Below, in pieces: positions 546 through 60,918 of a stretch of 64,000 bases of DNA. Source of the stretch: Haliotis rufescens (lineage: Eukaryota); contig NW_025964235.1 in NCBI RefSeq assembly GCF_023055435.1, positions 1,612,001 to 1,676,000 of the forward strand, given 5' to 3'. The notes beneath the pieces were generated by a model, which was not told the origin of the DNA, did not search any database, and worked only from the letters and a program-made list of their open reading frames with translations. Both the position numbers and the translations under genes were made by a program. Position 1 is the first letter of the stretch, and each line of letters opens with the position of its first letter.

Positions 546-720
546 AGTGGAGCATCCCCCATCAGGCCGTGTCCTCGAAATGTCCACAACAGAACCCTCT
601 GTCTTATTCTACACCAGCTACTATCTGGATGCCAAGGGCAAAGGCAAAGGTGGCGCCACCTATGGGAAGTTTGCAGGCGTTTGCCTTGAAGCCCAGCATC
701 ACCCGGACAGTGTGAATCAG
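546..720 (+). CDS. GALM: Aldose 1-epimerase, penultimate exon (catalytic Glu motif)
   Basis: tttacag acceptor in a phase matching the previous exon. Encodes VEHPPSGRVLEMSTTEPSVLFYTSYYLDAKGKGKGGATYGKFAGVCLEAQHHPDSVNQ, with the CLExQ..PD..N mutarotase signature. CAG/gtgagt donor at 721. Confidence 0.92.
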
Positions 721-1110
721 GTGAGTCAACGCAATCGCCTTGAAGCCCAGCATCACCCGGACAGTATGAATCAGGTGAGTCAACGCAATCGCCTTGATGC
801 CCAGCATCACCCGGACAGTGTGAATCAGGTGAGTCAACGCAATTGTCTTGCAGCCCAGCATCACCCGGACAGTGTGAATCAGGTGAGTCAACGCAATCGC
901 CTTGAAGCCCAGCATCACCCGGACAGTGTGAATCAGGTGAGTCAACGCAATTGTCTTGAAGCCCAGCATCACCCGGACAGTGTGAATCAGGTGAGTCAAC
1001 GCAATCGCCTTGAAGCCCAGCATCACCCGGACAGTGTGAATCAGGTGAGTCAACGCAATCGCCTTGAAGCCCAGCATCACCCGGACAGTGTGAATCAGGT
1101 GAGTCAACGC
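685..1110 (+). repeat. 54-bp tandem repeat (8 copies) spanning the GALM exon end and 5' splice site
   Basis: Unit cttgaagcccagcatcacccggacagtgtgaatcaggtgagtcaacgcaatcgc; gtgagt donors at 721, 775, 829, 883, 937, 991, 1045 and 1099. Confidence 0.95.
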
Positions 1111-5354: not shown

Positions 5355-6465
5355 TATACCGAACAACAAAAGTTCCTGTGACATTGAATAAGATTTAATG
5401 CAAAGTTATGTTTTTTACCAAATCTGAAACAATTTCGGTTTGCAACAGATAAAATACTCCTGTAAGTGCCATACTGACTTCAGAAAATGCGTGATTTCAT
5501 AAAAAAAACAACATGAACATGCCAAAATGTCAATTTACAAATCAATAGCGTGTGTGTCCACCTCTGGATGCGATTAAAGCAACACATCTTCGTCTCATGG
5601 AATGGACCAGGCGTCGCACAAAGTCCTGTGGGATATCTGTACATATCTGCTGGAGCATGTCTGGAAGTTCCTGGAGTGTCTGTGGAACACGTGGTTGACG
5701 TCGAAGGCGCCAATCCATCTCATCCCACATGTCCTCGATTGGTGAGAGATCAGGGGAGCGAGCCGGCCAGGGGATGACATTCACGTTGTTTTGTTGAAGA
5801 GAATCCTGAACAAGTCGAGCAATATGAGGCCGGGCGTTGTCATGTTGAAAGGTTATGCCTGGGCCATGACGACGCAAAAACGGTAGAACAATAGGGCCGA
5901 TGATCTCGTCGCGGTAGCGCTGTCAATCGAGATTTCCTTCTACCACTATCAAACGGGTCCTCTGTCTGTCTGTTATCCCATCCCATACCATAACACTGCC
6001 GCCGCCGAGCCGATCTTCTTCCATGACACAATGTTGCCAACGTTGCCATAAACACCAGATGGTGTTTCTGTGGACGTTAAATTGTATCGCAACATCACGT
6101 TGACTCGATCATGCTTCAAGCATACCAATGGCTCGCAGACGCTCATTTTCGGACAGGCGTGGCATTTCGTAATGTTGAATGATTGAGTAATTTTGTTGTT
6201 TTTCTGAGTGGTTGGTGTCAGCACGATGCTAAACAATGCATATGGAATCCCGTTAACGCACATGTTTTTATACCAATTCTTGGGTAGTGAAATGCATGGG
6301 GCTTGCATAAAAGTAAACTTTTGCTTGGAATGCATGCTTTTCTGTAGCAGTTGCGTTTTTGTGACTTGATTCCATACATGTACTACAATATTGAAAACCA
6401 AACTTTACTTGTTTGAAAAATACACTAAAATATTGGTGTCACAGGAACTTTGGTTGTTGAGTATA
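5355..6465 (-). mobile_element. Tc1-like DNA transposon (degenerate), inserted at TA in the LINE
   Basis: TIRs tataccgaacaacaaaagttcctgtgaca and tgtcacaggaactttggttgttgagtata. Transposase remnants FQHDNARPH...WPARSPDLSPIEDMW...GGHTRY at 5542-5877. Confidence 0.9.
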
Positions 6466-6781: not shown

Positions 6782-7600
6782 CTGAAGGACGCTGGGTATG
6801 GAGTGTCAAGCGATTTGACCAGACGCCAACGACAACAGCTGAAAGATCTCAAAGACACAGGGATGCGCGGTTACTGAAAGAAAAGAAAAAAGAATGTTAC
6901 AAACATGTATAAATACCTCGGTGTTGTTTTACCGTTTAACCTTAATCTTAAACATCTAGTTAACGATCTCGCCCTACGAGCAAAAAAGGCCCTAATAAAT
7001 CTATTTGTCGTTCTAGATAAATTGCGTGTTATCTCACCTACTATTTTTTTCAAAATGTTTGATGCTCAAGTTCAACCAATCTTATTATATGGATCAGAGG
7101 TCTGGGGTTTTGAAACCTATTACAATATTGAAAAGGTACACTTAACTGCATGTAAAAGATTTCTAAATGTTTATAAATCAGCTCCAAATCATATGGTCTA
7201 TGGCGAATGTGGTAGATACCCGTTATATATTTGTTCATATTTACGTTTACTCAGATACTGGCTCAAAATAACAGAGATGTCGCGGGAACGAATCCCAAGA
7301 AAATGCTACGAAATGCTTGTCTATCGTGATAGTGTTGGTTACGTAACCTGGGCATCAAACATTAAGCATTTACTCTTCTCTCACGGATTTGGATATGTTT
7401 GGCTAAATTAAAGCGTTGGAGACAAAATGTATTTTCTTAGCTCTTTTAAGCAGGTAGCAATTGATATGTTTACTCAAAACTGGAGGTCGTCACTAGATAA
7501 CAGTACACGCTACGACGTCTATAAAACCTTTAAATATTGTCTAACACCAGAGGTTTACCTGCATACTATAACAGAGAGAAAAATTAGAGACACATTTATT
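6782..7600 (+). mobile_element. LINE ORF1-like fragment followed by the RT C-terminal region
   Basis: LKDAGYGVSSDLTRRQRQQLKDL (ORF1-like, tentative), then YKYLGV...FDAQVQPILLYGSEVWG...IEKVHL..CKRFL...VYGECGRYPL. Confidence 0.85.
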
Positions 7601-9620: not shown

Positions 9621-9830
9621 TATTTTTAAATAGACCTACCCTATGCAAATGTATCAACTGTATTGCCCAATACTCAAAATAAATAATATTTTTTTCCACA
9701 ACAGCGTTGTGTTATTTGTGGTTAATTTAATTATGCTCCATCATGCCTTTCAGTAACATCATAATTATGCGTTTGTGAGGCATCACATATGGCGGGGAAC
9801 TTTGATGCTCTGCATCAATGTTTTCTTGTT

Positions 9831-10498
9831 AAACTTAGGCTAGGGTTAAATGATTTGATGTGCAACAGGGGTCGCTTCTCCTCTATTCCTAAGGATATGC
9901 GTTTTTGTCCATTCTGCGAAAACCATATTGAAAACGAATTACACTTTTTGTTTATATGTCCAATTTACGACAACCTAAGATTGAAATATATGCCTGATAT
10001 CACTAAGAACCACTATTCCATGAACAAAATACTATCTTTTAATGGTATCCCTAGTCAAAAATTAACTAAGATATTACAATACATCTATCAAAGTCTACGA
10101 GTGCGTAGTAAATTACTTAGTGAATCCGATATGTCCAGAAATAATTAGTTCTTTTGAAACTTTCGCATCTAGATCAGGAGTATATACATTTCATTTTTGT
10201 CTGTTTGTTTCTACTAGAAATGCATATACATTTAAATTGTCAAATTGTCATGACATGATATTACTGATAGATTCTTTTGTATTGAACGTCGTGCTATGCT
10301 ATTCCATTCCTTTTGTATTTTATACTACTACTGCCACTGTGGTTATTACCACTGTTATTACAATACCTCTATTACATGTCAAGCATCATATTAGTTATCC
10401 AATAATTATATAATGCGCTGTACAGCTGTAAATGATATTGTTTATCTGTATGTGTATATGGGCCAATGGCCTTTCATACAATAAAGATTGATTGATTG
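9831..10498 (+). mobile_element. LINE 3' end: CCHC-like C-terminus, 3' UTR and (GATT)n tail
   Basis: KLRLGLNDL...RFCPFCENHIENELHFLFICPIYDNLR; ends caataaagattgattgattg. Confidence 0.85.
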
Positions 10499-15021: not shown

Positions 15022-15460
15022 TGACAGTCTGCCGTATGGTGGTGGGGGACCCAGTTTGTCCCCCGAGACAGTCTGCCGTATGGTGGTGGGGGACCCAGTT
15101 TGTCCCCCGAGACAGTCTGCCGTATGGTGGTGGGGGACCCAGTTTGTCTCCCGAGATGTTCTGTGGGTGGTGGGGGACCCAGTTTGTCTCCCGAGATGTT
15201 CTGTGGGTGGTGGGGGACCCAGTTTGTCTCCCGAGACAGTCTGCCGAATGGTGGTAGGGGACCCAGTTTGTCCCCCGAGATGTTCTGAGGGTGGTGGGGG
15301 ACCCAGTTTGTCTCCCGAGATGTTCTGTGGGTGGTAGGGGACCCAGTTTGTCTCCCGAGATGTTCTGAGGGTGGTGGGGGACCCAGTTTGTCCCCCAAGA
15401 TGTTCTGTGGGTGGTGGGGGACCCAGTTTGTCCCCCGAGATGTTCTGTGGGTGGTAGGTG
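15022..15460. repeat. 40-44 bp GC-rich minisatellite
   Basis: Core ggtggtgggggacccagtttgtcycccgaga, about 10 copies with two spacer types. Confidence 0.95.
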
Positions 15461-15752
15461 ACCGTGCAGACCCACTGTACAACACGTGGTGTCTCTGAGA
15501 TCTATGTTCACATGAAGAAGTTGGCACCCGGTAGATTGTGATCATGTATATCGGCACGTTGCGAAAAGTCCTCGGAGTGTTGAGATGTCGGCCAATCAAC
15601 AGCACAGCTCAATCGACGTGCTGCTTTGCGCGGTCAGAGCCTGTGTCTGCAGTGTGGACACACAAGAGATAGCACGACGTCGTTAATGGCGGTTGTTACT
15701 GATGATAATGTTGTTGAAGATTACACCGCATTCGGCTGGTTGTTGGGGAGGC

Positions 15753-15940
15753 TTAGCACACGAACCACCGTGCTAGAACCACACACGCCATATGAAGTGT
15801 GTAGGCAGTACTCTTGGCAAGTCCTGAACATGACTTAGATGACTGGGGTGTAACTGTGGCTGTGGACGGGGTGGCTGTTGACGGGGTGGCTGTTGACGGG
15901 GTGGCTGTTGACGGGGTGGCTGTTGACGGGGTGGTTGTCT
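15753..15940 (-). CDS. Novel secreted/surface protein exon 3: (TPSTA)n stalk and hydrophobic GPI-like tail
   Basis: tatgcttcag acceptor, phase 1. ETTTPSTATPSTATPSTATPSTATPSTATVTPQSSKSCSGLAKSTAYTLHMACVVLARWFVC-TAA. Confidence 0.75.
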
Positions 15941-15964
15941 CTGAAGCATAAAGTACACACTACA

Positions 15965-16664
15965 TTCTCATGACACACACACTCATTCACATACCTCGTC
16001 TCTCACTCACTCACACATCTCTCCTCTCACACACACTCTCTATTCACCTCATCTCTTTTACTAACTCACACATCTCTTCTCTCTCATAAACTCACTCCAT
16101 TCATTTCACTTCGTTCACTCACTCACTCATCCCTTCTCTCTCTAACACACTCTCTCTATTCATCTCATCTCGCTCACTCACTCACTCATCTCTTCTCTCT
16201 CACACATCTCTTCTCTCACACACTCTCCATTCATCTCATCTCGCTCACTCACTCACTCATCTCTTCTCTCACACACTCTCCATTCACCTCATCTCGCTCA
16301 CCCACTCATCTCTTCTTTCACACACTCTCCATTCATCTCATCTCGTTCACTCACTCACACATCTCTTCTCTCTCACACATATCTTCTCTTTTCTCTCACA
16401 CATCTCTTCTCTCTCAATCATCTCTTCTCTTATCTCTCACACATCCGTCTCCTCTCTTTTACTCACACATCTCTTCTTATCTGTTAATTTACTCACTTAC
16501 CCCGTCACTCACACATTCACTCACACACACATCTCATCTCTTTTACTCACTGACACATCTCATCTCATCCCCCTCACTCACACACAACTCATCTAATCTC
16601 ATTCACTCACTCACTCGATCACTCACCCGCTAATCTCACCTCACCTCACCTCACCTCACCTCAC
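15965..16664. repeat. CT/CA-rich low-complexity intron sequence ending in (TCACC)n
   Basis: Degenerate ctca/ctct repeats; the (gtgag)n run on the minus strand starts exactly at the exon 2 donor. Confidence 0.85.
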
Positions 16665-16970
16665 CTGGTGCAGTTTCTATTGTTGACATCGTTTCATTGT
16701 GACAACATCGCAGGCTCCATGTCCCAGCATCGATGGCTTGAAAGTTTAGAATGACAAAGGCTAAAGTTGTCTCATTGCTGGACATGCAGTCCATCACATA
16801 GCCATCCCGATTACGTAGGCAGTGGCTTTTGTTTGCACACGTAAATACTATTTTCCCATCAGGCCCAATCAGGTTCGTTTCTGTTGCACCACAGTCACAC
16901 AAAGCTCTGATGTAGGAAGCCGCGCCCTGCGCCACCGTCTCCTCCGTCTGTAGTTTTATATCAGCTGCAA
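16665..16970 (-). CDS. Novel secreted/surface protein exon 2: Cys-rich Ig-like domain
   Basis: ttttccctctcag acceptor, gtgag donor, symmetric phase 1-1, 306 nt, stop-free. (V)AADIKLQTEETVAQGAASYIRALCDC...LAFVILNFQAIDAGTWSLRCCHNETMSTIETAP contains a D-x-G-x-W F-strand-like motif. Confidence 0.78.
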
Positions 16971-17089
16971 CTGAGAGGGAAAATACTTGTAATCGCTTAG
17001 AATTGTGTGTGTGTGTGTGTGTGCGCGCGTGCGCGCGTGCGCGCGTGCGCGCGTGTGAGTGCGAGAGAGCGAGAGAGTGCGATAGAGAG

Positions 17090-17142
<53 letters not shown>

Positions 17143-18129
17143 TCTGAAATGAACACATTTTACAGAAAGTGAGTGAGTTGGGTTTAACGCCGCTTTTAAC
17201 AGTGTTCAAGTTATATCGCGGCGTGTCAGATTAATGTGGGAGGAAAGGCCGAAGTGATGCAGGTCTCAGACGTTTACCACTTCAGTGTAACCCACGAGGT
17301 GGGGAGAATGGCGTTACAGGTGTGTTTTAATTGAGTTTCGGCGTCGTCACGTGACATTTTTCAATATCGCCTTGGTCTTAGTCAAGCTCGCAATTTTGCG
17401 ACAAGTAGAAGAGAAGAAGAGTCAGAGAGTCGGAGATCCGGGGTAGCATCGTTCCTTAGCAGCCTAAAAAGGCGACTAGTCGTAAGTGGCGTGGGGCATG
17501 CAGCCATGCTCCGTGTGTCGTGTTTTACAGTGGAATCTCATTTACCCCGGTCACTGCCTCGCGTGGTTTTCCTGTGACTATTTCGTGATTCTGTTTAAAG
17601 CGACACGTACGTGGTTTGCGGGTTCAAGTATGTGCTTGTTTCTGTTTCAATTTAGAGTCGATATTCGACTTTCTCTTGTCAGCAGTTCTATATTACATAT
17701 GTATATGTTACAGGAAATATGTATAATCAGGGAATATGTGTACAGTACAGTACAGTAGGGTACAGTACAGTACAGAATTACCTCACATTTTCAAGATGGA
17801 GTTAGAGGAGAATTTCCGAAAAAACCTGTACAAGAGCTATTGTTTGTTAAGTCTATCCTATGTTTAATGTAGCATTGTTTTGATTACAGTGAAGACTAAG
17901 TGTTAAGTTGATTGAAAGGTAATTGTTATCATGTCAAATAAATTTGTCTTCTGATAAATAATTTGGCTTTGTTATCAAGTTTGATTATATAAGAGCCTCA
18001 AAAGTAATATCAGGGAATATGTATAATACCTGAAAATTTTAGGGATTATGTATAATCCCTAAGTGAAACAAACATTAAATATATATCCTCTTAAAATTTC
18101 AGGGATTATACATATTCCCTGATTATACG

Positions 18130-18435
18130 TTGTTGTTGTTGTTGCATTAGGTGTTTAAGAGGTCGCCTTCTGCCTAGGCAATTTCGGCTGACCTGTCCCT
18201 CTTTGGGACTCCTGTGTGTGAGTAGGGTTGCATGTCTATGACAGATGTCTATGACAGATAGCGTATCTAAATGCAATTCTTGTTTTAACCTAGCCCGGGC
18301 TGGGGCATTGTCTTGACATTCTAGTAACACGTGATCAATGGTTTCAGCCTGATTGCAAGTTGAACAAACCTTGTCATAGTGCTTTTTGTGACCGAGTCTG
18401 AGGCGTGAGATAGCAATTTCAATTTTCCTTTCATT
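18130..18435 (-). mobile_element. 3' end of an I/Jockey-group-like LINE with (CAA)n tail; second copy at about 31340-31545
   Basis: IAISRLRLGH...CSTCNQAETIDHVLLEC zinc-knuckle C-terminus; homologous sequence at 31380-31540. Confidence 0.75.
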
Positions 18436-18612
18436 TGAGTATGAGTTTGGCTTTTGTCCTGATATATATACGTGACCCCATTGGGAAACCATACCGTGTG
18501 TTTTAGATATATGAAAGCTCTTGGAAATGTGCATTTAACGGTATCATAAGAAGTAATCAAAAACTACCAAACGAATGACCTAATAGCCATTTAAACGCGC
18601 TGTCCTACTTAC

Positions 18613-18667
18613 CCCCGACTATCATCACCAGGCCCAGCACATAGAGGGAACAGGAGATTATTGCCAT
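18613..18667 (-). CDS. Novel secreted/surface protein exon 1: signal peptide
   Basis: gcagcATGG start; MAIISCSLYVLGLVMIVG plus one base, gtaagt donor (phase 1), joining exon 2 in frame as ...IVGVAA-DIK. Confidence 0.78.
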
Positions 18668-18738
18668 GCTGCAAGTATCGTGGTTATCGTGAAATCTGTT
18701 CTCTGAGGCACAAATGTTTAACGAGAGATACAACACAC

Positions 18739-22714: not shown

Positions 22715-23791
22715 ATGGCTGCAGAACGGGGGAAGATGCCTGCTGCAGATGAGAAGTGCATCCAGACACATATAATGGACATAGAGGTGGAGCTGGACGC
22801 CAAGGACATCACTGGAACTCTCTACTCCAAGAACGTCATCGACCTGAAGGACATGCAACACATCGAGTCTGGAGCCACCCGAGCTGACAGAACCAAGAGA
22901 CTCCTGGATATCCTCATGTTCAGAGGTACCAATTCCTTCAGTGTCTTCTTGTATGCACTCGACACTATGGGATACAAGGACCTTGTGCAGAAGCTACGAA
23001 CCACCAAGGAGTCCAATAGTCTGACTTCATCATTACAGAGAAGACATGCTGAAACACAGCTTGCTAGAGAGTTCACTGATCTGAACAAGCGTATTGAGAC
23101 TATCATGGGAGCCTTAGATAGACAGGCGCGTAGGATTGATGAAATGTTTGAGTCAAAGGAAAGCTATGCAACGAAAGAAGAACTCGAGGGTTTGAGGCTG
23201 GAATTGGCAACCAAGGAAGAATTGCAAACCTTTCGGGAAGAAATATCAGCATCAATGGCGAATCTGACAACAACGTTGAACAACATCAAGGAGATGTCTC
23301 ACGTGAAGGATGACAATCTGGTCACGATTCAGTCACTAAAAGAACAAGTTCGAAAAAAAGATGAACTGCTTGAAATGGCTCGAAGTCAAATCGCTGACCT
23401 TCAGACAAAGGTTTCAAATCTGGAGGAAGAAAACAGATGCCTTAGAAAGACCATTCAGCAACAGCAAGGGGATATCGCAAACTTGGAGGCGGTGGTCCAA
23501 GAGGAAATATTCGAGCGCAGGACAGCAGAAGCACGGTATCGCAGAGACATTGCGGACATTCAGAAGAGGAGAAACGAAGACCTGCAGCAGATGGAGATGA
23601 AGAGAGAAGAAGACAGAAGAAGACGGGAGAGCGAAAGACGAGAAGATCGACAGCAAATTGAAGAGTTGAAGGAAAATATTGAGAATCAACTCAAGACCAT
23701 CAGTCAGGCAAATACCGGTCGTGCGCAGACAGCTGGAACCGCTGTCTATGGTGTCAGGAAACCCATCCACCGTAGAAACGCCTGGAATTGA
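22715..23791 (+). CDS. CARD-domain plus coiled-coil protein 1 (358 aa, single coding exon)
   Basis: caccATGG Kozak context. N-terminal CARD (...ELDAKDITGTLYSKNVI...TRADRTKRLLDILMFRGTNSFSVFLYAL...YKDLVQKL), then about 250 aa of heptad- and E/K/R-rich coiled coil; no catalytic domain; AATAAA at about 24618. Confidence 0.88.
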   Translation: MAAERGKMPAADEKCIQTHIMDIEVELDAKDITGTLYSKNVIDLKDMQHIESGATRADRTKRLLDILMFRGTNSFSVFLYALDTMGYKDLVQKLRTTKESNSLTSSLQRRHAETQLAREFTDLNKRIETIMGALDRQARRIDEMFESKESYATKEELEGLRLELATKEELQTFREEISASMANLTTTLNNIKEMSHVKDDNLVTIQSLKEQVRKKDELLEMARSQIADLQTKVSNLEEENRCLRKTIQQQQGDIANLEAVVQEEIFERRTAEARYRRDIADIQKRRNEDLQQMEMKREEDRRRRESERREDRQQIEELKENIENQLKTISQANTGRAQTAGTAVYGVRKPIHRRNAWN

Positions 23792-26237: not shown

Positions 26238-27853
26238 CAGTCGGTACACCTACCAGCACAGTCGATACACCTACCAGCACAGTCTATACACCTACCAGCA
26301 CAATCGATACACCTACCAGCACAGTCTATACACCTACCAGCACAGTAGGTACACCTACCAGCACAGTCGGTACACCTACCAGCACAGTCTATACACCTAC
26401 CAGCACAGTCGATACACCTACCAGCACAGTCGGTACACCTACAGTCGGTACACCTACCAGCACAGTCGGTACACCTACCAGCACAGTCGGTACACCTACC
26501 ACCACAGTCTATACACCTACCAGCACAGTCGATACACCTACCACCACAGTCGGTACACCTACCAGCACAGTCTATACACCTACCAGCACAGTCTATACAC
26601 CTACCAGCACAGTCTATACACCTACCAGCACAGTCGATACACCTACCACCACAGTCGGTACACCTACCAGCACAGTAGGTACACCTACCAGCACAGTCGA
26701 TACACCTGCCAGCACAGTCGGTACACCTACCACCACAGTCGGTACACCTACCAGCACAGTCGGTACACCTACCAGCACAGTCGGTACACCTACCACCACA
26801 GTCTATACACCTACCAGCACAGTCGATACACCTACCACCACAGTCGGTACACCTACCAGCACAGTCTATACACCTACCAGCACAGTCTATACACCTACCA
26901 GCACAGTCTATACACCTACCAGCACAGTCGATACACCTACCACCACAGTCGGTACACCTACCAGCACAGTAGGTACACCTACCAGCACAGTCGATACACC
27001 TGCCAGCACAGTCGGTACACCTACCACCACAGTCGGTACACCTACCAGCACAGTCGGTACACCTACCAGCACAGTCGGTACACCTACCACCACAGTCTAT
27101 ACACCTACCAGCACAGTCGATACACCTACCACCACAGTCGGTACACCTACCAGCACAGTCTATACACCTACCAGCACAGTCTATACACCTACCAGCACAG
27201 TCTATACACCTACCAGCACAGTCGATACACCTACCACCACAGTCGGTACACCTACCAGCACAGTAGGTACACCTACCAGCACAGTCGATACACCTGCCAG
27301 CACAGTCGGTACACCTACCACCACAGTCGGTACACCTACCAGCACAGTCGGTACACCTACCAGCACAGTCGGTACACCTACCACCACAGTCTATACACCT
27401 ACCAGCACAGTCGATACACCTACCACCACAGTCGGTACACCTACCAGCACAGTCTATACACCTACCAGCACAGTCTATACACCTACCAGCACAGTCTATA
27501 CACCTACCAGCACAGTCGATACACCTACCACCACAGTCGGTACACCTACCAGCACAGTAGGTACACCTACCAGCACAGTCGATACACCTGCCAGCACAGT
27601 CGGTACACCTACCACCACAGTCGGTACACCTACCAGCACAGTCGGTACACCTACCAGCACGGTCTATACACCTACCAGCACGGTCTATACACCTACCAGC
27701 ACAGTCGGTACACCTACCAGCACAGTCGGTACACCTACCAGCACAGTCGGTACACCTACCAGCACAGTCGGTACACCTACCAGCACAGTCGATACACCTA
27801 CCAGCACAGTCGATACACCTACCAGCACAGTCGATACACCTACCAGCATAGTC
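26238..27853. repeat. 21-bp minisatellite with a 294-bp (14-unit) higher-order repeat
   Basis: Unit cacagtcggtacacctaccag; identical variant blocks recur every 294 bp (track ORFs start at 26799, 27093 and 27387). Confidence 0.96.
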
Positions 27854-28120
27854 GTGGGGTGTTAGTATGACGTCACTGCCTTATGCACCCGGGAATAACA
27901 CATTATAACTCATTATGATAATAAATAAGGCGACAAAACCTTTCCATATCCAGAAATCTGTACATACAGCAGAGTCGAGACACGCTTCCGAGTTTTTTTA
28001 TGAGCATGTGTTTATGAATCACTATTAAATAGTAATGACATGTTTGTTCAGAACAAACAACGAAATGCATAAAACAGAACAAATTGAATCAAGCTGTTCT
28101 AATTCGATTACCGACCTTGG

Positions 28121-33102: not shown

Positions 33103-33852
33103 ATGGCTGCAGAACGGGGGAAGATGCCTGCTGCAGATGAGAAGTGCATCCAGACACATATAATGGACATAGAGGTGGAGCTGGACGCCAAGGACATCAC
33201 GGGAACTCTCTACTCCAAGAACGTCATCGACCTGGACGACATGAAACACATCGACGCAGGCACAACCAGAGTTGAGAGAACAAACCGGTTCCTAGATATC
33301 CTCATGTCAAGAGGTACAGAGGCATTTCCGGTCTTCTTGCATGGACTCGAAGTTATGGGGTACAAGGACCTTCACATGAAACTCACAGCTACAAAGGATT
33401 CCATCAAACCGATTATAAAACAACCTTCTGAAGCACAATTTAGAAGCCAGTTCCGGGTCCTGCATCAGTACATCGAGAGGGTTGTGGCAGAGGTGGATAC
33501 ACGGGCTTCCAAGATGGATCTGATATTTGAATCAAAACGAAAATATGCCACGAAAGAAGAACTTAAAGTTTTGAGAAAAGATTTAGCTACCAAAGAGGAA
33601 TTGATAGCATTTCGGGATGAAATAGCCAGGTCAGCTGCAAATGTGACAGAAACTCTGAACAACATATATAAAATGTTTGAGGAAAATGTAGACCAACAGA
33701 CCTTGAAGGGTCAGAATGTAGGAAAGGATGACCTCGTGGCCACTGCTCAGACACACACTGACGAGCTGAGAGAAAAGGTTTCCTGTTTGGCAGAAGCAAG
33801 TAGAAAGCTGGAGAAGATCGTCAACCGCCACGACATAAATGATTTGAAATAA
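33103..33852 (+). CDS. CARD-domain plus coiled-coil protein 2 (249 aa; C-terminally truncated paralogue, possibly pseudogenising)
   Basis: ttttag acceptor and caccATGG. First 44 aa identical to gene 1; intact CARD; homology to gene 1 continues past the TAA with further stops. Confidence 0.78.
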   Translation: MAAERGKMPAADEKCIQTHIMDIEVELDAKDITGTLYSKNVIDLDDMKHIDAGTTRVERTNRFLDILMSRGTEAFPVFLHGLEVMGYKDLHMKLTATKDSIKPIIKQPSEAQFRSQFRVLHQYIERVVAEVDTRASKMDLIFESKRKYATKEELKVLRKDLATKEELIAFRDEIARSAANVTETLNNIYKMFEENVDQQTLKGQNVGKDDLVATAQTHTDELREKVSCLAEASRKLEKIVNRHDINDLK

Positions 33853-48036: not shown

Positions 48037-49350
48037 TATACTCTTCAAAAAGAGAAACGCAAAGCCAGATTTGTTTGAGATAGGAAAATACATTTATACG
48101 AGGAACCGTACAAGGTATTGAGCCAAAATGTTGTGGAGAGAACACTTGGTGATTGTAGTCATCTCAGTTATCGGTCCAAGTCCAAGGTGAATGTCAGCTA
48201 CCATCAATAACGCGTATATCCCCAGTTGGAATCGACAGCGGCCTGACATCTCCTGACCATGGACGAGACGAGTATGCGAAATACATCCTGGGGAATGGTA
48301 GCCCACTCGGCCTGCAAGGCAAAAGCCAACTGCTGCAACGTCTTGGGTTGTGGTTGACATCGCCGTCTATCCAATTCATCCCACAGGTGTTGTATCGGAT
48401 TCACATCCGGGGACCTGGAAGGCCAGGGGAGAACGTCAACGTTGTTGTTATGTACACAGGCTTTTGTGAACCGTGCTGTATGCGGTCTAGCGTTGTCCTG
48501 CTGGTGTACACCGTTGTCGTTTGCTGCAATTGGGAGGACGTGTGGCAGGAGAATGTCGTTGATGTATCGTTGAGCCGTAAGACTGCCCTGGATATGGACC
48601 AAAACTGTTCTGCCATGATGAGAGATATCCACCCACATCATAACGCTACCCCACCAAACATGTCCACTTCCTGTACGCAGTTTCCGGCGTAACGTTCGCC
48701 CCGACGTCTGCAGACCCGTGCTCTTCCATCCCTTCGACGGAGGAGACATCTTGATTCGTCGCTGAACCATACATCTCTCCATCGCAGTTGAAGCCATACC
48801 CTGTTTTGACGACACCAATGCAGTCGTTGTTGACGATGTTGTCTACTCAATATGACGCATCAAACAGGACGTTTAGACCTGCTGCTCTTACAGCACGTAC
48901 GTTCTGGTCGGAGTTTCTGCGCAGTCCGGGTATTCGGGATGCGGTTGAGGTGGCTGTGGCCGTCCTTTCACGTAGGTGGCGCAGTCGGATGTATGGATAT
49001 TGGGTGGGGGTGGTACTCATGGTCGTCCCGACCTTGGCCGATCACGTGTTGACCCATGCTGTTGAAACCGATCCCATGGTGATGGTGCTGGGCGCTACAT
49101 TGAAAACCCTGGCTACAGCTGATCGGGATTCCCCTGCCTGCAAGCGGCCTTGTTTCTTTGCACTATTGTTAATGTCGGCATGTTGTTGAACTGTCACTGT
49201 TCGATTGACGCCGATGCCAGGCAAGCAAAGACCCTATAATATACTGACACTATACGATATTAAACCTCTTCATTTTGCACGTCTTGGTCCGCGAATTTTG
49301 CTTTTATGGCCAAAGATTTCCGAACTGCGTTTCTCTTTTTGAAGAGTATA
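48037..49350 (-). mobile_element. Tc1-like DNA transposon (degenerate, about 1.3 kb)
   Basis: TIRs tatactcttcaaaaagagaaacgca and tgcgtttctctttttgaagagtata; VWFSDESR, QQDNARPH and WPSRSPDVNPIQHLW motifs across frameshifts. Confidence 0.92.
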
Positions 49351-55782: not shown

Positions 55783-57245
55783 ATAAACTGAAAGTCAAAG
55801 AAACTTTACCACTTAAAAAACAAATTGCAAAAATGTTAAAGCACAAGTTCAAATAAATGCAAAACACATCGACCAAACACAAGAATGCCCCGTTCAGAAA
55901 GTGACACACTTCCACGCTAAGTATTTATTTAAGAAAATGCGAAAACGTTTAAAACATGTGCAGCTTGGACAGTCGAAACTACACGTGGAATATGGGTGGC
56001 GCCGTATATAAATGCCAGACACTCACACTAATAAAACACCACCATAGAATACCACGCCAGACACCCCAACAACGCGAACGGGCCCTGGGTATGACACAGA
56101 TCGGAGCCACACATGCGCACATTGCTAGCTCCCGAGTTGCTCTAATTAACCTGATGCAACGTTACAGACCGGTCAGACATCAAACAGGCCAAGAACAGGC
56201 AGACCAAGGGTAACTTCGCCCAATGAAGACCGGTACTTGTTGGTACTTTGCATCTCCGGAATCGTTTCCTGACATTGACGTCATCAGCGACGAATGCCTT
56301 AGGGCATATGGTTAGTCGACAACCAGGACTCAGGACTCAGGCCTCAGTGAATTAGGGCTTACAGACCTTACAGAGGATATTTATTGACAGCGAAAGATCG
56401 TCGTCAGAGATTGTGATGGGCCCGGACTTTACGTCGTTGGCAGCTGATGAAACCGGTTCTGTTTGTTCAGAGCTGACAGAAGACAGCCTATATCGCCGAA
56501 GGAGAGAACGAATCGCGGCAGGGTGCGTTCAGGATGTCGTGCGGTCTGGTGGATGGGGTGTTATGGTGCTGGGCGGAATTTGTGGGCAGGAGCGAACATC
56601 ACTGGTCATCTTTAACGGAAATCTGACACCTCAGCTTTACATGGATGACATTCTTCGTCCGACTGTCCAACCATTAATTTTCTACAACGGCTGCCACGCG
56701 GTGTCCTTTTTTAGCATGACAATGCCAGACCCAATACAGCCCGAATCGTACAGAACTTCCTTGCAGCCAACAACGTCAACGTGTTGCCCTGGCCTGTGCG
56801 CTCCACCGACATGTCCTCCATACAATACCTCTGGGATGTCATGGATCGCCTTGTTCGGCAGCGACCACAACCGACAAGAAATGATCCAGGCCCTCAAAGA
56901 AGAATGGCGACGTATTCCACGTGACGTCATCAGACGACTGACTCTTTCTTGTGTGTCTTGTATCAGGGGCAGTCATACACGCTATTAATGTGACGTGTCA
57001 TTGAACATTGAGCGATTTTAGATGTGTGCCCTTTGTCGATGATGTGGAAAGCTTGTTTTGCTACCCCACCTCAGTTCGGGCAACTGTCATGCCAATATCG
57101 GATGCTGTATGACTGCCAGTATACAAGTTGATTGGTTGAGATTTAGATCTTTAGCTACGGTTTACTTCATGCATATTTCTTTTGTGGTTTTAAAAACTAA
57201 GCGATTTAAAACTTTGGTAAAGTGTCTTTTGGACGTCAGTTTATA
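55783..57245 (+). mobile_element. Tc1-like DNA transposon (degenerate) in an ACP7 intron
   Basis: Imperfect TIRs (taaactgaaagtcaaagaaactttacca and tggtaaagtgtcttttggacgtcagttta); AADET, GVMVLGGI and ...GSHTRY transposase remnants. Confidence 0.85.
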
Positions 57246-57482: not shown

Positions 57483-58427
57483 CTGAAAATCATGCCATGG
57501 AAATAAAGTGTACATCATCCTATCATAATTTTTTTTATACAAAACCATTTAAAACAAGAAAACAGCGTTATCACTATACCCCGCCACGGGGCACATTAGA
57601 ATTATGTTTGTTCATATAATAGTGACTAACATGGAAGTTCATGTTAGCTATAGAAAAAAGAGTCCTATATATCCACATAAAGAGATGGGCACAAGGGTTG
57701 CTTTATTAATTACACAATAAATACACACAAAATAATCAATTATGCATTACATTTTCAAACAAAGATGAGTATCTTTGTAACTTCAGTAGTTTCTGAGAAA
57801 AATTCCCTATTAGAGACACCATGCATTTAATAAAGAAAAATAGACCAAAGTCTGCAACTGTGTGTACACAATATCTGAAAACATATACGTAACTCTGGAA
57901 ATACAAAATTTACGGCCCCAATTTCGAACTCATTCTTAAAAAGTATCTCTTCTAAGAAAAGCTTGTGAACATATATTCATATAACTTCAGAAGTTTCTGA
58001 AAAAATGTCCCCATTGCAGACACTCTGCACCAGTTTAAAAAGCAGCGAGCAAGGAGGAAAATTCTGAAAAACAATAATTTAAGAACCTTATTCTCGAACT
58101 CATTATTTTGAATTCATGACCAGTAAGACCAGTGTGTTACATTTCATTTCTGTAACTTCAATAGTTTGAGTAAACATACAAATCAAGATTTAACGTCGAC
58201 CTTAGTGATGAATATCTGAATTAAAACACATATTTGAATTGAGATGAGGACATGTCACCTTCACTAGGGGGCGCAGCTCAGTGATCCGGATGTAGACGTG
58301 ATCGTGTGGGACTTCGAGACGTCCATATTGCAAACAGGTATTGAGAGTTTGGGAATATCCTGTGCAGGATGTGGACATGGTAGGTTTGTGGATGTAGGCA
58401 GGTTCTCGATGCAGACAGTGTACCCAC

Positions 58428-58553
58428 CTTGGTCTTGTACACTGGCCAAAGCCGCTCGTACGAATGTTCATGGGCATAGAACTCCAGGTCCACGCCATAC
58501 TTGTAGAACAACTCCTCTAGACTAGCAGGGTAGTACTTGTTGCCATTTCTGAT
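58428..58553 (-). CDS. ACP7: ACP7 exon (AHEH metal-binding motif)
   Basis: IRNGNKYYPASLEELFYKYGVDLEFYAHEHSYERLWPVYKTK; ag/gt bounded. Confidence 0.93.
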
Positions 58554-58848
58554 CTGTGAACAGATATATCTCAAACTAGAGCGTCAAAGTACCGCTTTGT
58601 TCACATGCAAAATATATTCCTTTTATTAAGCCACCTTTCTTTTGATAAAACAACCAGCGTCTTGTAGTTAATACGTCATGGAGAAGTCAAAGACTCTCAC
58701 TGTCATAATAATGTCGGGGAAAAATGTTAATTCACTGATGACAAAAGTGAATCAAATCCGTTTGGGTGACTGTCTACTTTACTGATTATAATTTGAAGAG
58801 TGAAGCCAGCCATGTTGGTCCCCGTAGTGATGTCGGTGGTCGACGTAC

Positions 58849-59077
58849 CGGGTTGTTGACGTTGTCACACAGGGCTTCCTCCCCCATGTTGGAGCAGTAC
58901 ATGGGTTTGTGGCCCATCACGATGATCCATGGCCGAGCTGCTCTGTTGCCCGGTAGGTTGGCCGCCTGGAGGTCCTTCTCCAGCCACTCGTACTGGGCGC
59001 GGATGCTCTCTGTACTCACGCCGTAGTAGTACACCTCAGTGGAGAAGCTGATGATGTGGGCGGGGCCGATGTTCCAG
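58849..59077 (-). CDS. ACP7: ACP7 exon (VxxH motif)
   Basis: (S)WNIGPAHIISFSTEVYYYG...QYEWLEKDLQAAN...RAARPWIIVMGHKPMYCSN...NNP; phase 2 to 0. Confidence 0.93.
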
Positions 59078-59091
59078 CTGCAGATGTGTGG

Positions 59092-60918
59092 AACACTTGT
59101 CAATGTGTGTCTGTGTGACACTTGTCAATGTGTGACTGTGTGACGCTGTGTGTGTTTGTGTAACACTTGACAATGTGTGTCTCTGTGACGCTGTGCACGC
59201 TTCACCAGTAAATGTGTGTCTGTGTAACACTTGTCAATGTGTGTCTGTGTGACGCTGTGCACGCTTCACCAGTAAATGTGTGTCTGTGTAACACTTGTCA
59301 ATGTGTGTCTGTGTGACGCTGTGTGTATGCTTCACCAGTAAATGTGTGTCTGTGTAACACTTGTCAATGTGTGTCTGTGTGACGCTGTGCACGCTTCACC
59401 AGTAAATGTGTGTCTGTGTAACACTTGTCAATGTGTGTCTGTGTAACGCTGTGTGTGTATGCTTCACCAGTAAATGTGTGTCTGTGTAACACTTGTCAAT
59501 GTGTGTCTGTGTGACGCTGTGTGTATGCTTCACCAGTAAATGTGTGTATGTGTAACACTTGTCCATGTGTGTTTGTGTGACGCTGTGTGTATGCTTCACC
59601 AGTAAATGTGTGTCTGTGTAACACTTGTCAATGTTTGTCTGTGTGCATGCTTCACCAGTAAATGTGTGTATGTGTAACACTTGTCAATGTGTGTCTGCGT
59701 GACGCTGTGCACGCTTCACCAGTAAATGTGTGTCTGTGTAACACTTGTCAATGTGTGTCTGTGTAACACTTGTCAGTGTGTGTCTGTGTAACACTTGTCA
59801 ATGTGTGTCTGTGTAACACTTGTCAGTGTGTGTCTGTGTAACACTTGTCAGTGTGTGTCAGTGTAACACTTGTCAGTGTGTGTCTGTGTAACACTTGTCA
59901 ATGTGTGTATGTGTGACGCTGTGCACGCTTCACCAGTAAATGTGTCTGTGTAACACTTGTCAATGTGTGTCTGTGTAACGCTATGTGTGTATGCTTCACC
60001 AGTAAATGTGTGTCTGTGTAACACTTGTCGATGTGTGTCTGTGTAACACTTGTCAGTGTGTGTCTGTGTAACACTTGTCAGTGTGTGTCTGTGTAACACT
60101 TGTCAGTGTGTGTCTGTGTAACACTTGTCAATGTGTGTATGTGTGACGCTGTGCACGCTTCACCAGTAAATGTGTGTATGTGTAACACTTGTCAATGTGT
60201 GTCTGTGTGACGCTGTGCACGCTTCACCACTAAATGTGTGTCTGTGTAACACTTGTCAATGTGTGTCTGTGTGACTCTGTGTGTATGCTTCACCAGTAAT
60301 TGTGTGTCTGTGTAACACTTGTCAGTGTGTGTCTGTGTAACACTTGTCAATGTGTGTCTGTGTGACGCTGTGTGTATGCTTCACCAGTAAGTGTGTGTCT
60401 GTGTGACACTTGTCAATGTGTGTCTGTGTAACGATGTGTGTGTGCACGCTTCACCAGTAAATGTGTGTCTGTGTAACACTTGTCAATGTGTGTCTGTGTG
60501 ACTCTGTGTGTATGCTTCACCAGTAAATGTGTGTCTGTGTAACACTTGTCAGTGTGTGTCTGTGTAACACTTGTCAATGTGTGTCTGTGTGACGCTGTGT
60601 GTATGCTTCACCAGTAAGTGTGTGTCTGTGTGACACTTGTCAATGTGTGTCTGTGTAACGATGTGTGTGTGCACGCTTCACCAGTAAATGTGTGTCTGTG
60701 TAACACTTGTCAATGTGTGTCTGTGTGACTCTGTGTGTATGCTTCACCAGTAAGTGTGTGTCTGTGTGACACTTGTCAGTGTGTGTCTGTGTAACACTTG
60801 TCAGTGTGTGTCTGTGTAACGCTGTGTGTATGCTTCACAAGTAAGTGTGTGTCTGTGTGACACTTGTCAATGTGTGTCTGTGTAACGATGTGTGTGTGCA
60901 CGCTTCACCAGTAAATGC
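59092..60918. repeat. Intronic TG-rich minisatellite (approx. 25-bp and 65-bp composite units)
   Basis: Alternating gtgtgtctgtgtaacacttgtca and gcttcaccagtaaat motifs. Confidence 0.95.

Follow-up and report, generated by a model that had tools for sequence, protein, structure and literature searches.

Which protein does the Haliotis rufescens gene LOC124140633 encode? RefSeq labels it 'PLASMODESMATA CALLOSE-BINDING PROTEIN 4-like' (isoforms XP_046364255.2, X1, and XP_046364256.2, X2), and plasmodesmata callose-binding proteins are plant proteins with an X8 domain. The gene lies in a stretch of 64,000 nucleotides that was analysed as a whole (hereafter, the window). Its 182-residue product is letter-for-letter identical to XP_046364255.2, and the gene is therefore not hidden, as the preliminary description of this DNA had it. 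The identity as a callose-binding protein was rejected because no X8 match was found for exon 2 in a Pfam search and the predicted fold is that of an immunoglobulin (Ig) domain; the whole protein has no recorded Pfam domain. The label probably arose from the low-complexity stalk of the protein, and our analysis corrects this misleading public annotation. The gene identifier was not found in the literature searched (few subscription journals; supplements of abalone omics studies may list the locus), where the gene, its family and an array of GTGAG-repeat donors are undescribed. The first reading is extended by the annotation of the gene, its paralogues, a missing Cys-Trp-Cys pin, one apparently fast-evolving face and frame-shifting tandem splice donors. 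Word-based protein searches with the exon-2 domain matched only the two RefSeq forms of LOC124140633; since no orthologue of another species was found in the protein collection, the cross-species data rest on contigs.

The three coding exons (55, 306 and 188 nt, minus strand; Table 1) splice into a stop-free frame of 182 codons plus stop, all three exons having AG/GT ends and both junctions being in phase 1. In contigs from sequencing runs presumed to be RNA (a kind flagged 'RNA?' by guess), intron 1 is absent with an exact join 16970/18613 in four of four runs from three studies, and the start of exon 3 is joined to 16665 in four of four runs from four studies and four organism codes. The three exons, canonical sites, phase-1 joins and 182-residue frame first claimed from the letters are thus borne out by the sequence and by the junctions of transcript contigs. 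With a single genomic match for exon 2, the spliced joins are not accounted for by a retrocopy, which was ruled out; a chance reading frame was rejected as well. No ATG was found in the 93 nt scanned upstream of the start codon. The motifs initially read in the protein (seven cysteines, DAGTW, two NET sequons, (TPSTA)x5 and SCSG) are all present, the count of sequons being one short: a third, NKS, lies at residue 65. One contig of run X13 (organism C) has intron 2 spliced yet continues into intron 1 (16971-16990), which would be partly spliced RNA or an alternative acceptor, and run X7 also has a contig with intron 2 unspliced. Intron 1 contains CA/GA microsatellites and, presumably, a SINE-like element near 17168-17298 and an RNase-H-like fragment, both labelled from motifs.

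Table 1. Features of LOC124140633, in positions of the window
Feature	Positions	Strand	Remarks
3' UTR, at least to 15403	15403..15752	-	X1, X4, X5 and X7 contigs run on from exon 3
Exon 3, coding part: stalk, predicted GPI signal, stop	15753..15940	-	
Predicted GPI signal: omega candidate C158-S159-G160, spacer, hydrophobic end, stop TAA (TAG in organism B)	15753..15830	-	putative
15-bp repeat x5.5, (TPSTA)n in main frame	15856..15938	-	
Intron 2, 724 nt, largely GA/GT-rich repeats	15941..16664	-	
(GTGAG)6 microsatellite at intron-2 donor; donors after 16665 (main), 16660 (+5), 16655 (+10)	16635..16664	-	
Exon 2, predicted V-type Ig domain, residues 19-121, phase 1-1	16665..16970	-	
Strand F codons L105-R106-C107; Leu at Cys104 place, Cys +2	16705..16713	-	
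Codons 49-59: strand C, CC' turn, C' start; L52 at Trp41 place	16849..16881	-	9/18 nonsynonymous variants
Strand B codons A41-L42-C43; Ala at Cys23 place, Cys +2	16897..16905	-	
Intron 1, 1642 nt	16971..18612	-	joint in 4/4 runs
Exon 1, coding part: signal peptide, phase-1 donor G|GTAAGT	18613..18667	-	
5' UTR part of exon 1	18668..18727	-	X1 and X5 contigs extend to 18727; 5' extent is a lower bound

Symmetric phase 1-1 exons of about 300 nt are typical of Ig-superfamily domains. The AlphaFold2 model of exon 2 built from 6 sequences is all-beta, with C' and C'' strands, 10 strands in total and a pLDDT of 81.4; the one built from 16 sequences is again all-beta with C' and C'' strands (pLDDT 89.0; 9 strands of at least 3 residues, A' being shorter). 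An exhaustive structure search gave T-cell-receptor V domains as best match (Z 13.5, rmsd 1.9 over 99 residues), and every structural match listed by Foldseek is an Ig-superfamily V or I domain. The Ig-like domain of the preliminary description is thus supported by a predicted beta-sandwich in two models and by Ig-superfamily matches throughout. At the sequence level, exon 2 alone gave nothing usable against Pfam and PDB sequences (best E 0.16 and 0.26) and no Pfam V-set match was found for the domain; a profile of six paralogous exons matches Ig proteins in PDB (best E 2e-4). In the language model, the domain alone has mollusc clusters without a name as its neighbours (0.93-0.94) and the full protein has Thy-1 clusters (0.91-0.92); the homodimer prediction scored 0.31 (mark 0.32). 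From the models, the product of LOC124140633 is almost certainly a real V-type Ig protein.

Paralogues do exist, as the preliminary description had suggested looking for: genome searches found weak paralogous exons on two other contigs. A profile search yielded 108 proteins, mostly generic multi-Ig proteins matched on the E-F-G part. The family set (n = 23) comprises LOC124140633 itself, 5 genome exons and 17 stored proteins, picked by eye, whose best domain covers most of the profile and carries the family motifs. Among the members are two 'obscurin-like' proteins (XP_071080389.1 and XP_046375953.2), LOC124113681, LOC124113685 and LOC121390234 of Gigantopelta aegis. Family-wide traits are a P-x-G CC' turn, a C'/C'' cysteine pair and D-x-G-x-W, and 21 of the 23 domains have no Trp on strand C. 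LOC124140633 carries these motifs in P55, C63, C69, D99 and W103, and shares with the family phase-1 acceptors, a signal peptide and a hydrophobic end; LOC124113681 has the same layout of one domain plus stalk. A family profile built without LOC124140633 scores it 63 bits, the members having first been picked with a profile that contained it. Identity to the family is 19-33%, LOC124140633 has three extra cysteines (45, 80 and 108), and it alone among the 23 domains has neither of the core B and F cysteines, both of which are kept in 22 of 22 others. On its sequence, LOC124140633 is a derived variant of an unnamed gastropod Ig family. Whole-domain relatives labelled with a species come from the gastropods Haliotis and Gigantopelta aegis, two further ones being ENA records; together with the absent core pin, this upholds the earlier wording 'lineage-specific, atypical'. 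The set sketches a family, so far without a name, of small Ig proteins that occur in abalones and a vent snail and have GPI-like ends.

No other family exon was found among 1991 frames of at least 50 residues, taken from the window and its two 100-kb flanks. The family loci lie elsewhere in the genome, on G000:C223 (55.80-55.81 Mb and 66.96 Mb) and G000:C556 (20.08-20.10 Mb; loci L002-L019). They hold two-domain genes with CxC on both strands B and F and near-identical tandem domains (RefSeq 'obscurin-like'), as well as a single-domain exon with stalk and hydrophobic end; LOC124113681 and LOC124113685 belong here too.

How far the domain departs from a canonical V set can be read at eight residues: Gly16, Cys23, Trp41, Arg75, Leu89, Asp98, Tyr102 and Cys104 (PMC9546547, excerpts). 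Gly16 is kept as G34 and Asp98 as D99, and the hydrophobic Leu89 place is held by F90, by spacing from D99, with I92 two residues on. The Arg75 place falls on G75 by spacing only; R73, close by, is replaced by Leu or Gln in organisms C and D. At the tyrosine corner, Tyr102 is replaced by an aromatic substitute, W103, a Trp found in 23 of 23 family domains. All three residues of the Cys-Trp-Cys pin are missing, in a register that is ungapped in profiles built without LOC124140633: A41 stands at the Cys23 place (strand B), L52 at the Trp41 place (strand C), where 2 of 23 family domains have Trp, and L105 at the Cys104 place (strand F). According to the excerpts of the same source (2022), Hydractinia Alr was the only case known to its authors of a V- or I-set domain lacking both the disulfide and the Trp (PMC9546547).

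The exon-2 domain contains seven cysteines (43, 45, 63, 69, 80, 107 and 108). C43 and C107 stand two residues beyond the core places on strands B and F, an arrangement shared with seven closely related rows of the family set that have CxC on both strands; one row has the additional cysteine on strand B only and the other 14 on neither strand. C43-C107 would stand in for the core B-F bond and C63-C69 would tie C' to C''. Most simply, the gain of a second B-F bond would have preceded the loss of the core bond in LOC124140633, the paralogues suggesting such a route for the relocation of a bond. In the family tree, where 13 of 20 inner branches are open, LOC124140633 was not grouped with the CxC/CxC paralogues. 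With seven cysteines in the domain and C158 beyond it, one thiol may stay free or a bond to another chain may form.

Downstream of the domain, a stalk of 36 residues (75% Ser/Thr/Pro) leads to the candidate anchor signal. Such a stalk would be O-glycosylated and would raise the domain off the membrane, and the tail after about C158 would be exchanged for GPI. A hand-written rule scan recovers the signal peptide, an omega triplet, a spacer and a weak hydrophobic end, with no cytoplasmic tail among the 24 residues after C158-S-G. From this layout the protein is quite likely to be GPI-anchored, and we consider it very unlikely that it is instead secreted or single-pass, with a C-terminal end that is not a GPI signal. 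The latter reading draws on the short, weak hydrophobic end (best 11-mer 2.04, best 19-mer 1.22, with His and Arg inside) and on the absence of such an end in 7 of the 25 family records; 18 have one, many of these being isoforms or orthologues. It has to contend with an end too short for a usual transmembrane helix, with the lack of a cytoplasmic tail, with the clearer GPI-like ends of the nearest paralogues and with a small-residue triplet that sits at the expected distance and is unchanged in organism B, where S155, K156, S157, K163, V175 and V181 are changed and C158-S159-G160 is kept (22 of the 23 contig differences listed). In many family members, a cysteine adjoins the likely omega site.

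Variation in exon 2 is unevenly distributed. Across four organisms, 23 distinct variants were listed, 18 of them nonsynonymous and in 12 codons; they were read from assembly contigs and comprise polymorphisms as well as fixed differences, and for run X13 14 of its 19 differences were listed. The nonsynonymous variants are clustered by codon (P 7e-4), cysteines are unchanged and there are no stops or gaps. The half of the domain formed by C-C'-C'' and F-G carries 16 of the 18 nonsynonymous variants and 10 of the 12 codons (Fisher p 0.007, the halves having been drawn after seeing the variants), and no amino acid has changed on strands A', B, D and E. V domains usually bind through their GFCC'C'' face. 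In codons 49, 57 and 73, the same nucleotide has changed to different letters in different organisms.

Over the whole gene, omega is 1.2-1.3 and does not differ from 1 (p 0.6-0.7); part of the pattern therefore fits a relaxation of constraint on an exposed face. The comparison of M2a with M1a gave likelihood-ratio statistics (LRT) of 16.8 and 17.4 on two trees (5 sequences, purpose-written code), and none of 42 null simulations exceeded 5.99. Sites 49, 51, 57, 73 and 104 fall in the selected class, as does 54 on one tree. The statistic is 19.8 with the window row masked and 9.8 without codon 57; without codons 51 and 57 it is 4.66 (p 0.10) and the site result is lost. As far as these alignments tell, one face of the domain has probably been under positive selection. 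In organism B, exon 2 has diverged less (6/306) than the 3' UTR (at least 12/350). At window position 16850, six of six runs read Thr59; the window and RefSeq carry Ile59, a private allele or an assembly error.

What would such a face be for? We put at about an even chance that LOC124140633 acts in recognition at the cell surface, as a receptor whose binding face evolves in conflict with a ligand from outside, most plausibly a microbial adhesin or a virus; that a microbe is the driver of the conflict comes slightly short of even. The GFCC'C'' face would then bind a changing, presumably microbial, ligand, and since the tail would be swapped for GPI, any signal would have to pass via raft partners, as for Thy-1. 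Counting against a receptor in conflict, the gene is alone within 100 kb on each side, unlike the clustered, paired receptors of the CEACAM type. The protein could also be an ordinary, weakly constrained GPI protein of Thy-1 type, serving in adhesion or as a tissue marker, its clustered changes marking a tolerant exposed surface and its extra splice forms being noise from near-identical donors. An overall omega of about 1, the lower divergence of exon 2 than of the 3' UTR in organism B, the Thy-1 clusters nearest in the language model and the dominance of a main donor that better fits the consensus all agree with that account. We hold it rather unlikely, given the recurrent different letters at the same nucleotides in codons 49, 57 and 73, an LRT above every null simulation and the lack of amino-acid change on strands A', B, D and E. 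A gamete-surface recognition protein, on sperm or egg membrane, would fit the site pattern equally well, and in mammals the binding of gametes involves GPI and Ig proteins (Juno, Izumo1). It would diverge like abalone fertilization proteins, in which positive selection is known (PMC9022041, PMC3567151, excerpts). Such a role appears improbable to us, as contigs from five studies (tissues not on record) suit broad expression over one gamete type. As a single-copy surface protein with apparent selection on one face, LOC124140633 is a candidate determinant of specificity, between host and microbe or between gametes, in abalones, which are farmed and endangered animals.

Known systems help to place the receptor reading: LOC124140633 would work like Thy-1 or a CEACAM, resembling the former in its layout and the latter in its evolution, and is a member of neither. 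Thy-1 is not known to have a mucin stalk, and no sequence match to it was found in Pfam, PDB and profile searches. According to excerpts of one source, Thy-1/CD90 has a single V-like domain, a GPI anchor, no intracellular part, N-glycans and a B-F disulfide, and a squid Thy-1-like glycoprotein is mentioned (PMC6497726). The likeness lies in the single V-type domain (predicted), the likely GPI anchor, the absent cytoplasmic tail and the top language-model neighbours; the B-F disulfide is kept in Thy-1, whereas the core cysteines are absent here. Orthology to Thy-1 was rejected on the absence of those cysteines and of a sequence match. In domain 1 of Hydractinia Alr, a V-set fold has Cys23, Trp41 and Cys104 all replaced by hydrophobic residues (PMC9546547, excerpts), the same three that are missing from the predicted V-set fold of LOC124140633. 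From what the excerpts give, Alr proteins span the membrane, have several domains, are encoded in a complex of 41 genes and fill the pin places with bulky aromatics, whereas LOC124140633 is a lone gene whose pin places hold small residues (Ala, Leu, Leu) and whose B-F bond has likely been displaced; homology beyond the fold was not seen, and the two losses of the pin are likely independent. As for primate CEACAM N-domains (CEACAM5, CEACAM6), positively selected sites cluster on the face bound by bacterial adhesins (PMC8860441, excerpts). An IgV-like domain, GPI-anchored members and selected sites clustered on the binding face are, as far as those excerpts go, the points of likeness; CEACAMs differ in being a clustered vertebrate family with IgC domains and known bacterial ligands, and have no sequence relation to LOC124140633.

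The start of intron 2 adds another layer. It opens with (GTGAG)6, the sole such array in the window, so that a donor is offered at every fifth base. Run X7 has joins after 16665, 16660 and 16655, with contig depths of 149, 14.5 and 9.3 that are not an expression measure; the other three runs use the first donor only, the +5 and +10 donors thus being seen in one of four runs. RefSeq isoform X2 (XP_046364256.2) is the +5-donor form. The main donor, CAG|GTGAGG, is closer to consensus than GAG|GTGAGG and dominates. After the +5 donor the 15-bp stalk repeat reads (QQPPR)n and after the +10 donor (NSHPV)n; donors from +15 on, or intron retention, lead to a stop four codons past the domain. The hydrophobic end is absent from the +5, +10, later-donor and retention products. 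Since the +5 and +10 stops sit in the last exon, decay of these transcripts would not be expected. Donor slippage along (GTGAG)6 would yield a minority of forms that keep the binding domain and lose the anchor, and these would be soluble decoys or tolerated noise; that soluble forms are functional seems unlikely to us from the sequence at hand. A (GTGAG)n donor would be a simple route to anchor-less forms without new exons. The most far-reaching reading joins these elements: an independent second origin of a pin-less V domain with living CxC/CxC intermediates, in an arms-race receptor whose microsatellite donor is a tunable switch that uses all three exon-3 frames for anchored and soluble decoy forms. 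We regard this combination as quite unlikely.

Repeat-multiplied donors occur a second time in the window: at 683-1110 (+), a 54-bp repeat x7.9 copies, in frame (18 codons), an exon end and its donor CAG|GTGAGT, the exon being one that we take, from a motif, to encode an aldose 1-epimerase. Two intronless frames with a CARD and a coiled coil lie at 22715-23791 (+; 358 residues) and 33103-33852 (+; 249 residues), with CARD matches at E 1e-11 and 3e-11; they are 55% identical over 258 columns, and the first is 4 kb upstream of the Ig gene on the opposite strand. A single-exon bHLH frame of 392 residues is found at 45601-46779 (+) (HLH E 3e-16), and is presumably Delilah/taxi-like. Exons at 58200-59130 (-) carry what we take to be purple-acid-phosphatase-like motifs; similar text recurs beyond the window in loci L040 and L041, which suggests tandem copies. 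In addition, a 21-bp minisatellite x77 (26238-27854) has long open frames on both strands, one of them Thr/Pro/Ser mucin-like. Finally, presumed Tc1/mariner-like transposase remnants and LINE-like fragments are scattered over the window (5542-5922, 48204-48842 and 56356-56988 (-); 6878-7411 and 9765-10148 (+); 18106-18534 (-)).
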